Translations under genes and position numbers: made by a program | Assembly (NCBI GenBank): GCA_965197585.1 | Contig: OZ240215.1 | Location: forward strand, 1,792,001 to 1,856,000 | Length of the DNA stretch: 64,000 bases | Direction: 5' to 3' | Source: Dehalococcoidia bacterium | GTDB taxonomy: Bacteria; Chloroflexota; Dehalococcoidia; Plut-88900 | Notes under the pieces: generated by a model | Database searches by the model: none | What the model was told of the DNA's origin: nothing | The model's input: the letters and a program-made list of their open reading frames with translations, nothing else | Shown: positions 21,756 through 39,766 of the stretch, piece by piece | How the letters are laid out: the number at the start of each line of letters is the position of its first letter | How positions within the stretch are numbered: the stretch's first letter is position 1

Positions 21756-22571
21756 TCACGGGACCCGAGTCACGCGGACTGCGAAATTGCGGACATCCGG
21801 GGCACCGACGCGCGCTGCGTCAATCACGGTAGCTAGCGCCCACCCCACAGCGCTCGCCGTCCACTCAGGCAACATGACCGACACCCCGAGACCCGAGCGG
21901 GCAGGGGAGATGGGGCGCTCGGGCCAGTCGAACGACGCCTTGATCGAGTGCTGCTCAGGCACCGCTGCAACCGGTCCGAACTTGAATAGTCCAGTGTTCC
22001 TCCACTGGAGACCGGCGACCAACTCTTCCTCGGTTTGACCTCCGAGCAGCTCCTGGTTGAAGGCGATGAGCGCATCTGCTTTTCCCTTCAGGGTGGTGTT
22101 AAACCAATTGAGCGCAGAGACCAAGTCCCCTGCCGGGGATCGTATGCCGGGATCTAGGTCATATGCCGTCACCTGTATCCCAGACAACTCTACGTCTCCA
22201 AAGCGGCGGAGCGCATCATCGAAGCACTGTACCAACGCCGGCAACACCATTGCCGGCTCGGCAGGGCGTCGGCGAACCCCGAGCGCTGCATACCCCCAAC
22301 CTGTAACCGGTGCCGGAGGCGCCCTGGTTGGCTTGAGGTCACCAACGTTCAGTCCGACCTGCACCCACCCAATCCGGGATGCCTCAACGCCGACGGTTAG
22401 TTCCGCCTCGTTCATATCCCAGAGCATCGGGCGGCGACGATTCGACGTGGTTGACCAACCCATCAGTTCAGCACGCGCTCTAAAGACGCTATAGAGGTCC
22501 TCCTCCTCGGCATCAATCAGGTTCGTGCCCGGAGAAAGCTGTCCGAAAGCCTCAAGGAAAAGGGTCGACAT
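21756..22571 (-). CDS. Hypothetical protein
   Basis: 271-aa ORF with GAGGAG RBS; no recognised motif. Confidence 0.7.
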   Translation of the reverse strand: MSTLFLEAFGQLSPGTNLIDAEEEDLYSVFRARAELMGWSTTSNRRRPMLWDMNEAELTVGVEASRIGWVQVGLNVGDLKPTRAPPAPVTGWGYAALGVRRRPAEPAMVLPALVQCFDDALRRFGDVELSGIQVTAYDLDPGIRSPAGDLVSALNWFNTTLKGKADALIAFNQELLGGQTEEELVAGLQWRNTGLFKFGPVAAVPEQHSIKASFDWPERPISPARSGLGVSVMLPEWTASAVGWALATVIDAARVGAPDVRNFAVRVTRVP

Positions 22572-22580
22572 GGCAACTCC

Positions 22581-22901
22581 TCACCACCAACAAGTCCATA
22601 GACTGTCGCGGTGTACGTATCTGGACAATAGGCGGAACAATCTTCGAGACGTGACTTGGTAGACTGTTAACATCAGCAACCTCACGATGCGGTATGTACT
22701 ACGCCACCCATCAGGCTTTTTGGTCAAGTCGTTATACAGCCACTGGAACGGCCGGCCAACGTGCACGACAGGCACAATCGCGATCCCAAGCGCAACGGTC
22801 CACGCCATTTAGTCATCCAGGATGCCGAGCACTGCGGGAGGGATGGAAACGGTGGGTATGACAACGACCAAACCAGATATACACTTTCCTCTGCGCTTCA
22901 C
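22581..22901 (-). pseudogene. Possible small membrane-protein pseudogene
   Basis: Hydrophobic frame MKRRGKCISGLVVVIPTVSIPPAVLGILDD-TAA-MAWTVALGIAIVPVV... with one in-frame stop. Confidence 0.3.
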
Positions 22902-23108
22902 GGTAAAGTAGCTCCCGGCAAGATTTTAACAGCCGAAACGGGAGACTCGAGGTACGAGCGCTGCGTGGCACGAATGCAGGACCTGTAGAGCCAACTGCGT
23001 AGACCCGACACCTATGAGTCTAATTGGCTGACACGGCAAAGGAGGCACCCCGATCAAATCAGAGAGCCTCCCATGATCTCGTTCAGATAGAGGAGTGACA
23101 CCAACCCC

Positions 23109-23137
23109 TTGACCCGTATGAACATTAGTGCTATTAT
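23109..23137 (+). promoter_or_regulatory. Sigma70 promoter with LexA-box-like site in the spacer
   Basis: TTGACC-N17-TATTAT containing GAAC-ATTA-GTGC (one mismatch to GAAC-N4-GTTC); AAGGAGG at 23170. Confidence 0.55.
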
Positions 23138-23322
23138 CCCCACCGTTCGAACACCAACCTAACTATTTCAAGGAGGAACCAAAAACTAGGGAAGCCCACT
23201 AGACCCACCCGAGGACTCAACGTCCAAGCCCATCCCAACGGCCCGCGCGCAGGCCCGCGGCTCAAGCAAACGCCGCCATCTCCTCATCCCACCGGGTCCC
23301 GTGACCCCTTCCCTGACCCCCA

Positions 23323-23789
23323 GGCGATGGAAAGACGCCCTGGTTCGCTATCGTTCCATGTGTGCCCCCTCTAAGACGCCCTCAGCCTCTTACAGGGATT
23401 CCCTCCCCCGGGAGGGTTCCCGCTCTTTCGAGCGGGGCGGTTGGGTAAGCCCGGCGCCGAGGTCCTCTCGGCTCCTCGACCGCTTAACAAGTCGGGCGCC
23501 GGTGAACCGTGCGCTCCGGGTCACACCGGCAAACTCAAACATACTACGCCTGCATGAGCCCCGACGACCCACGCCGGACGCCGGGTCTCCTCCCCGCCCC
23601 TGCGGGGTGCAGCCGACCCTCGGGAGCAGGGCTCGGACTGTCGGCTCTGACGGTCCCTGCCTTGTCCGGCGTGTCAGGGCCTTAGGCCGCAGCAGCGGCA
23701 GGCGGGCCGGATGCCCTTGCCCCAGGGCCTCGTCGGAATACCCGCAACACAGGAACGGGGGCAGCGTCCAGCCAGCGTCTTCCATCGCC
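23323..23789. ncRNA. Putative large structured RNA or foldback element of unknown family
   Basis: Imperfect ~40-nt terminal inverted repeats enclosing many GC hairpins; no convincing protein. Confidence 0.45.
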
Positions 23790-24232
23790 AATCCCCTCCC
23801 AACAGACAGAACCGAAACCCACAAACCCCACAATCGAAGATGGAACACCCGCCGTGCTGAAAGTCCGCCTTTGGCGGAGAGGATCCGCCTCAGGAGGACT
23901 GAATAAAACCCCGGCGTGTCACGAATCTACCAAACGAGTACATCCCTTAGCATTCATCATCCAAAACTCTGTATTATTAGTCCCGAACCATGAATTCGAA
24001 GGGAATTTCCTTCTAGCAGCGTCATCTACAATGGTAGTCCGGCTCCGGGGTGACACTTAAGACCGCATCGTGTAAAGCTAGACAACTAAGACAAGAGTAC
24101 GGCGTATCAGCCAAATGGCTCCAACAACGAGTTATCACGCCGCCTATAATTAGGAACTCTATCAATGGAGACAGGCAGTTTTCCATTGTTGATATGATGC
24201 ACCCTATAGAGGGCAGACAGAGGGAGGAACGA

Positions 24233-25399
24233 ATGGATTACAAAGTGATATCGGCAGACACCCATCTGGACGTTGCATGGCTTCCGGGTGACCTCTTCAC
24301 GAACAACGCCCCGGCACATCTCAAGGACAAAATGCCATATGTGGCCGACCAGAAAAACGGCGGCAAGGCATGGGAAATCGAGGGAGAATATATGTGCGGC
24401 GCCGGTGTAGGAGGAAATCTGACGAAGGATTTCGCAGCCTACGTACCTGGTCAGTCTCACCATCTTGACCGTATGGCTGAAGTGGGTTTCTTTGACGGCA
24501 TAGCGAACGGCATCTACCACCCCTCGGATGCACAGCTGCGCATCAAAGACCAGGACATCGACGGTGTAGACGCCGAGGTGATGTACGGCATCCTGGGCAT
24601 AGGTGGAGGCGGATTTTCGGGGCCCGGATTCAAGGATGTTGAGGTTACAACCGCCATCTATAATGCCTACAACGAATGGGTGTCCGGCTTTGTTCGACCC
24701 CACTCCGATCGCATCGCCGCCCTCGGTTGCCTCAGCAGCCACGATCCCGAAGTAGCAGCCCGACAGGTGAGACGCTGCGCCGAATTGGGATTACGAGGCG
24801 CGGAAATCAATGCTGGCAAAATGCCTAACCCCGCATATCACAAAAACTGGGAGCCGTTGTGGGAAGCCGCATCGGAGACCCGTATGCCAGTATCTTTCCA
24901 TACGTTGGGCTATCCCCATAGAACTCCTTCACCTGCCGACCAGGACGATTACGGATGGCTGAGCATGGGCCTTGGATTCATCATGTTCCAGCTATCGGGC
25001 ATCGAGTTCCTTGTAAGCATGGTTCTCTCCGGGGCCTGCGAGCGAAATCCAGACTTCCAATTCGTCCTCGGCGAGTGTGGAATCGGATGGATCCCCTACG
25101 TAATCGAAAGGACCGATTCAAAATACGATGACCGTCTGTTCCACCTAGGGTTCAACATGAAGCCTAGCGAGTACTGGCAGAGACAGGGCTACTCAACCTT
25201 CCAGCAGGAATACGTCTCAACCGATGAGATTGAGCGGATCGGCATCAACAACATAATGTGGGGCTCGGACTATCCCCACCCCGACGGCGTGTTCCCCGAT
25301 TCTGCCAAGGCCATCGCAGAAGGCATGGGACACCTGGACGACGCGGTTCGGCAGAAGTTGATATGTGACAATGCTGCGAGAGTGTACCGATTCAACTAG
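24233..25399 (+). CDS. Amidohydrolase_2 family protein (paralog 1)
   Basis: ISADTH, DQDIDGVDAEVMY, FHTLG, GECGIGW, MWGSDYPH; GGAGG RBS before ATG at 24233. Confidence 0.92.
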   Translation: MDYKVISADTHLDVAWLPGDLFTNNAPAHLKDKMPYVADQKNGGKAWEIEGEYMCGAGVGGNLTKDFAAYVPGQSHHLDRMAEVGFFDGIANGIYHPSDAQLRIKDQDIDGVDAEVMYGILGIGGGGFSGPGFKDVEVTTAIYNAYNEWVSGFVRPHSDRIAALGCLSSHDPEVAARQVRRCAELGLRGAEINAGKMPNPAYHKNWEPLWEAASETRMPVSFHTLGYPHRTPSPADQDDYGWLSMGLGFIMFQLSGIEFLVSMVLSGACERNPDFQFVLGECGIGWIPYVIERTDSKYDDRLFHLGFNMKPSEYWQRQGYSTFQQEYVSTDEIERIGINNIMWGSDYPHPDGVFPDSAKAIAEGMGHLDDAVRQKLICDNAARVYRFN

Positions 25400-39691: not shown

Positions 39692-39766
39692 TGGTGAGCC
39701 GTGTGGGATTCGAACCCACGACACCCGGATTAAAAGTCCGGTGCTCTTCCGCTGAGCTAACGGCTC
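39692..39766 (-). tRNA. tRNA-Lys(UUU)
   Basis: GAGCCGT/ACGGCTC acceptor stem, CCGGA-CT-TTT-AA-TCCGG anticodon arm, GGTTCGAATCC, encoded CCA. Confidence 0.97.

Follow-up and report, generated by a model that had tools for sequence, protein, structure and literature searches.

A transposase-less element at host promoters in a Dehalococcoidia genome, probably carrying a large folded untranslated RNA

The 64,000-nt stretch of DNA analysed here (the window; positions 1,792,001 to 1,856,000 of contig OZ240215.1, assembly GCA_965197585.1, from a Dehalococcoidia bacterium) contains at positions 23323-23789 a densely structured segment of 467 nt with complementary ends, and the question that this locus raises is what such a segment could be. 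The original prediction, made by eye, saw in it either a new large non-coding RNA (ncRNA) or an RNA-like mobile element. Both ideas survive in part: the segment points to an ncRNA without a match in Rfam and it is mobile, but it moves as a DNA transposon does (inverted repeats, 5-bp duplications, empty sites) and not as an RNA-like element. The 467 nt are not a unit either; they form the exchangeable middle of an RNA of about 0.7 kb, within an element of 869 bp (23074-23942). The best explanation of the whole, which we hold to be probable, is a promoter-homing DDE-type element without a transposase, whose cargo is an expressed, untranslated and folded RNA. The G+C content of the core region is 66-71%, against about 45-58% in the flanks, and a strongly C-rich stretch lies directly upstream.

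Copies, range and ends of the element

We compared the window's own genome (G000; 3.43 Mb, one contig) with eight relatives of the same Dehalococcoidia genus (G001 to G008). With positions 23200-23900 as the query, 66 matches were found in the own genome. BLAST coverage over 22600-24300 falls into three zones: a 5' block (about 23080-23340) with up to 57 matches, a 3' block (about 23770-23940) with up to 38, and the core between them with only 6. There are 57 copies with a conserved 5' block, and a recognisable 3' block follows within 1.2 kb in 46 of them. The spacing between the two blocks ranges from 277 to 497 nt, the cores measure 325-553 nt from arm to arm, and about eight core sequence types can be distinguished by eye.

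The 5' block is present in all nine genomes of the genus and in none of 32 genomes outside it (three from other genera of the family, 29 from other families of the class). In a collection of species representatives, a 28-nt motif of the leader retrieved, among the matches listed, only eight assemblies, all named 'MAG: Dehalococcoidia bacterium' (MAG, metagenome-assembled genome), with at least 92 sites; in a metagenome collection it retrieved five contigs of one record set. The clearly labelled public runs that hold the locus are 'sponge metagenome' runs.

The limits of the window copy were set by comparison with an empty site in a sister genome. In G002, GAGAGCC-TCCC-TTAGCATTC is uninterrupted, whereas the window reads GAGAGCC-TCCCA-TGATCTCG ... 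CGAGTACA-TCCCT-TAGCATTC, the part from TGATCTCG to CGAGTACA being the element. This comparison and that of the flanking 5-mers give the target-site duplications, TCCCA on the left (23069-23073) and TCCCT on the right (23943-23947). The left terminal inverted repeat, TGATCTCGTTCAGATAGAGGAGTGACA (23074-23100, + strand), is common to about 15 copies and is, letter by letter, an imperfect inverse of the right one, GTGTCACGAATCTACCAAACGAGTACA (23916-23942, + strand), which was located by a pattern search with two mismatches to the consensus. In a manual comparison of the consensus ends, TGATCCCGTTCACATAGAGGGGTGACA and the reverse complement of GTGTCACTAATCTACCGAACGAGTACA match at about 18 of 27 positions, i.e. 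the ends are imperfect 27-bp terminal inverted repeats of the TG..CA kind. Fourteen copies keep both tips and measure 734-885 bp; their flanking 5-mers are identical in seven cases, match at 4 of 5 positions in four and at 3 or fewer in three. The window copy occupies the same site in G005, with 95% identity. A second precise empty site was found in G001, at the locus of copy c05, and empty sites are limited to these two loci. The original prediction had proposed to check copy number and empty sites; the outcome is 57 copies in a 3.43-Mb genome and two precise empty sites in sister genomes, the latter speaking for mobility.

Right ends with at most three mismatches number 21 in each of G000, G002 and G005, 10 in G001, 4 in G003 and 1 in each of G007 and G008, while a reversed control pattern gives none; only some genomes of the genus therefore have many copies of the mobilisable form. 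Terminal inverted repeats, a target-site duplication, precise empty sites and the lack of an internal transposase all agree with a MITE (a miniature transposable element with inverted repeats), although MITEs are usually shorter than about 600 bp and the element measures 734-885 bp. With its imperfect 27-bp TG..CA ends, its 5-bp duplications and no transposase, the element is very probably a non-autonomous DNA transposon of the IS481 type.

The comparison of orthologous sites also bears on the core. At the sites corresponding to copies c05 and c27, G002 and G005 carry an element that aligns in its flanks, 5' block and tail but has a middle of different length that does not align. The G007 site orthologous to the window copy likewise has matching ends and a non-matching middle. 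We infer that cores are swapped by recombination between copies, and repeated insertion at the same site may be another source of the core differences. The core types are shared across species, and they are old.

Several isolated observations concern the ends and their surroundings. A solitary left end (G000:C1:3404961-3404998, L032:462-499), identical to the consensus at 38 of 38 nt, abuts the -35 (TTGCGA) of a groES-groEL promoter with a CIRCE operator (TTAGCACTC-N9-GAGTGCTAA); it is probably a deletion remnant. In G004 (loci L025, L030, L066-L070), the same core type stands behind a shorter leader and its promoter is preceded by ...CCGTACA-TTTGC-TTGACA, a sequence resembling the remains of an element right end, 5 bp upstream of the -35 that belongs to the RNA gene itself. 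In 13 copies (e.g. G000:C1 near 937056 and 851967), three near-perfect hairpins form an upstream module of about 230 nt, situated between the left-end position and GTGACACGAA; copy c09 keeps a left end upstream of this module.

The RNA unit: anatomy, structure and transcripts

In the alignments, the copies share a common order: GTGACAcgAA-CCCC-TTGAC, 17-18 nt, TAtaaT; AAGGAGG; a C-rich leader of about 150 nt; the arm cAGGCGATGGAAGA...; the core; the arm ...TCTTCCATCGCC; and a C/A-rich tail ending CAAyyGAAkAw. In the window, the element's own promoter (23109-23137, + strand), a strong one of the sigma-70 type, is TTGACC-17 nt-TATTAT with TG before the -10, a promoter scan giving 10 of 12 matches. 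The conserved C-rich 5' leader extends from a predicted RNA start at 23145 to 23322 (+ strand) and includes AAGGAGG (23170-23176) without a start codon. At least 90% of the 57 copies retain the promoter elements CCcCTTGAC and CTAt..T, with a variable spacer between the hexamers. AAGGAGG is found in all 57, and ATG, GTG or TTG follows 4-14 nt downstream in none. The leader has a mean composition of 0.46 C and 0.20 G and, folded alone, it is no better than its shuffles (z -0.45). Beyond the core, the conserved tail (23790-23847, + strand) ends with ...CAATCGAAGATGGAACA in the alignment and is predicted to be unpaired in the fold; its mean composition is 0.39 C, 0.09 G and 0.44 A.

The core (23323-23789, + strand) is an exchangeable multi-helix domain closed by a conserved long-range helix, with arms at about 23323-23345 and 23767-23789. 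The paired ends noticed in the original prediction are recovered as the outermost helix of the minimum-free-energy fold, where 5' GGCGATGGAAAGACGCCCTGG... pairs with 3' ...CCAGCCAGCGTCTTCCATCGCC and closes all 467 nt. The dense folding is real as well: the + strand folds at -243.9 kcal/mol, whereas 100 dinucleotide shuffles give -210.2 +/- 7.0 (z -4.80) and none of them equals it; the - strand of the same segment reaches z -5.37. As for the inner hairpins, CCCTCC/GGAGGG, CCCGCTC-TTTC-GAGCGGG, CCGGCGCC/GGCGCCGG, ACGCCGGAC/GTCCGGCGT and GGACTGTC/GACGGTCC are in the fold and most of the hairpins that had been named are kept in an alignment of 37 copies, except CCGACGA/TCGTCGG, which is lost there. 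The linker AAACTCAAACATACTA, described as unpaired, is conserved and unpaired in this alignment.

By eye, the segment had matched neither RNase P, tmRNA, SRP, 6S, a riboswitch, a group II intron nor omegaRNA, and Rfam cmscan agrees. At the gathering level, the sole match in the whole window is a tRNA at 39695-39766, outside the element. A search of 22800-24300 at E up to 10 gave two chance-level matches only (E 1 and 2.7; 18.5 and 14 bits). The element thus matches none of the known Rfam families considered (OLE, ROOL, GOLLD, HEARO, RNase P, tmRNA, SRP, 6S, group II intron, riboswitches).

The comparison extends to the other copies. Pairing of the closing helix is preserved throughout the 57 copies, over 15-22 bp and with -27 to -39 kcal/mol. 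For its inner half, the alternatives are GACGC/GCGTC and GGTCC/GGACC, and there are other compensated forms, among them GACAC/GTGTC. All 53 cores computed among the 57 have a z below -2 (48 of them below -3; median -4.9; 15 shuffles each). The alignment for the core type of the window copy comprises 37 sequences, diverged by 5-28%, some of which are from the own genome and the others from G001, G002, G004, G005 and G007. Standard pairs occupy 98.5% of the cells over 101 predicted pairs, a proportion that falls to 34-43% when the partners are slid, and 14 cells show double changes, a number reached by none of 500 shuffles. The original prediction had found the G-U polarity mixed and left the strand open. 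Across the 37 copies, 388 G-U cells stand against 21 A-C cells; the RNA is therefore read from the + strand.

Transcripts were sought in sponge metatranscriptomes. Contigs assembled from RNA libraries contain the leader and the core in all four runs of one study, and one contig of 475 nt corresponds to 23317-23791 with nine differences. At 23212, 23317 and 23791, contigs end just where repeats have their borders, and the assembly may have broken there. No contig covers 22656-23023 or 23944-24311 and none joins the element to the downstream gene, uncovered stretches proving nothing about RNA ends or read-through. From this body of evidence, we consider it likely that the 467 nt are the central domain of an untranslated RNA of about 0.7 kb, transcribed on the + strand from the promoter at 23109-23137.

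The window copy has one peculiarity, namely two small hairpin repeats (TCCGCC..GGCGGA type) inserted in its tail (23850-23899, + strand). This mini-repeat of about 25-50 nt (GGAACATCCGCCTCTGGAGGA type) is found at at least ten other sites of the genome; it is inserted at several places in the leaders and tails of the elements, and also elsewhere.

Insertion at host promoters and candidate transposases

Beyond the right end, the window continues with a second promoter, TAGCAT-18 nt-TATTAT (23948-23977, + strand), whose -35 begins 5 bp past the element and which is uninterrupted in the G002 empty site. This arrangement is general. Among the 27 copies with a recognisable right end, TTG with at least 4 of the 6 positions of TTGACA occurs at exactly offset +5 in 16, against at most one copy for each of the other offsets from 0 to 24. 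Further copies have TTT or TAG variants at offset +5, as does the window copy with TAGCAT, and a -10-like hexamer follows 16-18 nt beyond the -35 in most of the 27. Both empty sites (G002 and G001) already hold the promoter; it is therefore the host's, and the element inserted at its upstream edge. The orientation is constant, the right end being always promoter-proximal, and this fits the bias of the downstream genes, which are co-oriented in 44 of the 57 copies according to crude calls of open reading frames (ORFs). Given this fixed orientation, the element's own promoter therefore fires toward the host promoter and its gene. In the portions of the literature that our search returned, we found no description of this element, nor of promoter targeting by IS481-type elements or by bacterial insertion sequences (ISs).

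In the window, the gene behind the host promoter encodes an Amidohydro_2 protein (24233-25399, + strand; Pfam PF04909, E 1.7e-31) and lies outside the element. A regulon or a riboswitch for the downstream gene was considered and rejected, as most of the genes downstream of these elements have no relation to one another (clusters of eight, four, three and two genes, and 40 singletons, for the 57 copies). The original prediction had also suggested looking for an adjacent nuclease, reverse transcriptase or transposase; instead, the neighbouring genes are unrelated and the element contains no protein gene. On the other side of the window copy, a 271-aa ORF without Pfam match is found at 21756-22571 (- strand); positions 22024-22936 are unaligned in G002, where the locus is rearranged.

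We then looked at the genes that could supply a transposase. The own genome has 29 genes with an rve domain, none of which lies between a left and a right end of the element, apart from a nested one in copy c04. This gene encodes a 423-aa protein (Pfam rve, E 8.7e-9; NCBIfam IS481, 50 bits for a cut-off of 224). It was rejected as the element's transposase, for it belongs to a separate nested insertion sequence, IS-X: in G005, the repeats of this unit, 99% identical, extend over no more than about 1.34-1.36 kb and have ends of their own. IS-X (G000:C1:659325-660685, L031/L035; in G005, L039 and L041-L049) has 11 intact copies at 99% identity in G005 and one each in G000 and G001; none was found in the other six genomes of the genus. 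Ten of the G005 copies were examined; all sit between GTGACAnnAA (GTGACAcgAA) and the TTGAC of element-type promoters, with a duplication of CCCC.

Two further candidates are insertion sequences of the own genome. IS-Y (about 950 bp, with a 296-aa rve/rve_3 protein) has three copies, in G000:C1 near 2228107, 492166 and 1740128 (L036-L038). In all three, the end is followed by about 5 bp, a TTGACA-like -35 and a -10 about 17 nt further on (e.g. TTGACA-17-TAAAAT), and two of them have clean 5-bp duplications, CACTG and GAGCG. IS-Y and IS-X thus share the geometry of an end, 4-5 bp and TTGAC. IS-Z (1056 bp) occupies 19 sites of G000:C1 (e.g. 1223547, 111945 and 3178640), with at least 96.6% identity in 17 of the 18 further copies, mostly above 99%, and its ends, TGTAAGTGTTAGGTAATTCGTTGACA..., match the element's right end at 19 of 27 positions. 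Judging from these ends and insertion sites, the mobilising enzyme is probably one of the resident IS481-like proteins of IS-X, IS-Y or IS-Z. Two observations on these sequences are added here: one IS-Y copy lies in front of a CIRCE-like operator, and several IS-Z copies lie directly upstream of RNA elements.

Competing explanations, proposed mechanism and known systems

The alternative that survives best is a free-standing large ncRNA acting in trans (a scaffold, sponge or ribozyme, like OLE, ROOL or GOLLD), with the transposon ends as a mere vehicle and the core types as functional variants; we regard it as doubtful, but it deserves attention. Such an RNA would explain why none of the 57 copies, even where the transposon ends have decayed, has lost its promoter, leader, closing helix or tail, why the core types are old and common to several species, why 53 of 53 computed cores are strongly structured and why the core appears in contigs from RNA libraries. 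However, conservation and structure do not coincide in the unit: its most conserved parts, leader and tail, are predicted to be unstructured, and the structured part is freely exchangeable. Moreover, no conserved protein partner lies nearby, the downstream genes belonging mostly to unrelated families, and 57 copies would be unusual for a housekeeping RNA. A purely trans role also leaves the strict placement and orientation at host promoters unexplained.

Somewhat less probable is that the fold is a by-product, i.e. that the element is a selfish miniature transposon made of nested palindromic repeats, with a functionless RNA produced only because a promoter is carried along. The genome is indeed full of small hairpin repeats that insert into the elements, both strands fold equally well and the covariation within a core type is modest. 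In addition, bacterial miniature transposons generally form long hairpins, as far as the consulted part of PMC3184786 goes. The bias of 388 G-U to 21 A-C cells, however, is specific to one strand and points to RNA rather than DNA. The promoter hexamers and AAGGAGG are invariant amid varying surroundings, the closing helix covaries between core types, and copies without transposon ends still keep the RNA unit; all of this argues against a mere palindrome.

The next alternative concerns coding. The original prediction had treated the overlapping ORFs as noise, and they behave as such: the + strand frame of the window copy, which runs 238 codons from stop to stop (23190-23906), is not conserved elsewhere, and the frame of the G005 ortholog has other limits and 192 codons. 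The frame that passes through the 3' arm is open for at least 150 codons upstream in only 4 of the 57 copies (0 and 6 for the other two frames). The longest open frames have a median of 132 codons against 118 in shuffles, and 8 of the 57 copies exceed their own 95% limit. The leader shows no period-3 pattern, and close copies differ in the alignment by 1-nt insertions or deletions. A protein gene was consequently rejected for this family, on account of these 1-nt differences, of the lack of a conserved frame and of the absence of a start codon after AAGGAGG (0 of 57).

A sister family (family 2) is different in this respect. It comprises 14 copies (G000:C1 at 62997, 505516, 684425, 728884, 964048, 1445775, 1577778, 1590952, 1673555, 2280292, 3022200, 3035117, 3062815 and 3386676; loci L072-L077) with the same promoter module, a partly similar leader and a similar tail, the arms of the closing helix being recognised in 5 of the 14. 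A conserved AAAGGAGTCCC-ATG is followed by 220 codons without a stop in 13 of the 14 copies, while the other two frames contain 74 and 52 stops in total. No amino-acid constraint was detected in this frame, with a ratio of non-synonymous to synonymous differences (pN/pS) of 0.78-1.08 in frame, no lower than out of frame, and family 2 has no Pfam domain. The database ORFs that match it are 473 unnamed ones, and none has a domain or a name among the 120 listed. The frame of family 2 thus seems to be kept open regardless of the amino acids.

Could the element then be a decayed protein gene derived from family 2, with the frame at 23190-23906 as its remnant? The element indeed has its promoter module, a portion of its leader, its tail and the arms of the closing helix in common with a family that has an open frame, and the eight copies beyond the 95% limit of their own shuffles exceed the three or so expected. 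We nevertheless find this improbable: the start codon after AAGGAGG is lacking throughout, no frame is conserved, the limits differ in the G005 ortholog, close copies are separated by 1-nt insertions or deletions, and family 2 itself, which has no Pfam domain, shows a pN/pS like that of the other frames. Finally, a transposition guide comparable to IS200/IS605 omega RNA or IS110 bridge RNA, with a variable core that would specify the target, is very improbable: although the RNA is carried by a mobile element, is read toward the element end and the target, has a variable segment within a constant scaffold and accompanies a site- and orientation-specific insertion, the flanks as read (with no formal complementarity search) share only a generic -35 hexamer whatever the core type, classic inverted ends with 5-bp duplications are typical of a DDE transposase, the geometry recurs in IS-Y and IS-X, which lack such an RNA, HEARO and related Rfam models give no match, and there is no TnpB, IscB or IS110 recombinase, the element having no protein gene and its neighbours being unrelated.

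The promoter-homing element with a folded RNA as cargo therefore remains our preferred explanation, and several results weigh against it. The left end is kept in only about 15 of the 57 copies and the right end in 27, the rest having different upstream modules, so that many copies may no longer be mobile. No right end with at most three mismatches was found in G004 and G006, and at least G004 nonetheless carries the RNA. An autonomous partner with the same ends was found neither in G000 (BLAST-short search for the order left end, gene, right end) nor in G001, G002 and G005 (coordinates compared by eye). The target of IS-Z is not a promoter: in both orientations, it enters the ATTCC of a small hairpin repeat (GTCATTCC-GAGGCnCCGCGAGGAATC) and duplicates these five bases. 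On the RNA side, double changes affect only 7 of the 101 pairs, a count reached by 37 of 500 shuffles, and the structure tested was derived from the same alignment; because of this, and because the copies are only 5-28% diverged, the covariation support is modest. The fold is not special to the non-coding family, since the cores of the open-frame sister family are equally structured (median z -4.2). The RNA evidence consists of contigs assembled in one study, which attest presence only, not ends, strand or level, and DNA carry-over is possible. Lastly, the cis model detailed below (30S stabilisation, Rho termination, effect on the host promoter) is a proposal drawn from sequence features.

In the mechanism that we propose, a resident IS481-like (rve) transposase would move the element in trans. 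Once transcribed, the start-less AAGGAGG near the 5' end would hold a 30S subunit and thereby act as a 5' stabiliser of the RNA, and the folded core would resist nucleases, the RNA being a stable cargo transcript. The unstructured C-rich and G-poor leader and tail would serve as loading sites for Rho, which would end the transcript before or at the host promoter. A rho gene is part of the genome (Rho_RNA_bind match, 103 bits), and the leader and tail have the features of Rho utilisation (rut) sites, being C-rich, G-poor, unpaired and untranslated; termination by Rho is put forward as a proposal only. Taken together, the invariant AAGGAGG, the C-rich unstructured leader, the tail with 9% G and the rho gene suggest a 30S-protected, Rho-ended transcript. 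Tentatively, we propose a cis role for the RNA unit: placed before host promoters, it may serve as an upstream transcription unit or as an insulator.

Family 2 might then be a translated, Rho-resistant version that reads through to the host gene. By extension, and much more speculatively, the element could be a mobile 'plug-in leader' that homes to promoters, perhaps via DNA bound by RNA polymerase, and rewires host genes by a switch between translation and Rho. The untranslated form would insulate, whereas in the open-frame form ribosomes would shield the transcript from Rho, so that the host gene would be driven from the element's strong promoter; tuning this switch, or helping to choose the target, would be the part of the swappable core.

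If the preferred explanation is true, a DNA transposon unites a transcription unit for a large folded RNA as its sole cargo, an exchange of cores between copies and an insertion at a fixed distance from the -35 in one orientation. It would offer a natural system to study how a DDE transposase finds promoters, and possibly a compact cassette combining a promoter and a stable RNA. For the host, an uncultured sponge-associated bacterium, 57 extra strong promoters before its genes may shape expression. Furthermore, gene callers are likely to mistake such GC-rich elements for hypothetical proteins, as with the 473 'proteins' of family 2.

Among known systems, the RNA recalls OLE, ROOL, GOLLD, raiA and HEARO/omega RNA, which are likewise several hundred nt long, highly structured and non-coding, some of them being linked to mobile elements. 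It differs from these orphan large ncRNAs in having no Rfam match and 57 copies per genome, in that its structured part is its variable part, and in its location, inside a DDE-type transposon and not beside TnpB, IscB or phage genes. The element has in common with STAB-SD, the 5' mRNA stabiliser of Bacillus thuringiensis cry3A, that a long untranslated RNA bears close to its 5' end a perfect Shine-Dalgarno-like box that no start codon follows. This likeness is in the sequence feature alone, and the box of the element heads a non-coding RNA, not an mRNA leader.

As a mobile element, it resembles the IS481 family by its TG..CA ends of about 27 bp, its 5-bp duplication, the match to the IS-Z end at 19 of 27 positions, and the same position of IS-Y and IS-X relative to TTGAC. 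It has no gene for an rve-type DDE transposase, unlike this family, of which it could only be a derivative or a passenger. To our knowledge, promoter targeting is not among the properties listed for IS481; promoter-directed integration is known in the yeast retrotransposons Ty1, Ty3 and Tf1. The closest likeness in lifestyle is with those MITEs and mobile insertion cassettes of bacteria that fold as RNA or bring promoters with them, such as the Correia elements of Neisseria, ERIC and Nezha. Like them, the element has no transposase, terminal inverted repeats, short duplications, many dispersed intergenic copies with presence or absence in relatives, self-pairing and an effect or potential effect on the expression of neighbouring genes. 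It differs from them by its larger size (734-885 bp), the full conserved transcription unit that it contains, its interchangeable core types and its fixed position 5 bp upstream of the -35, in one orientation.

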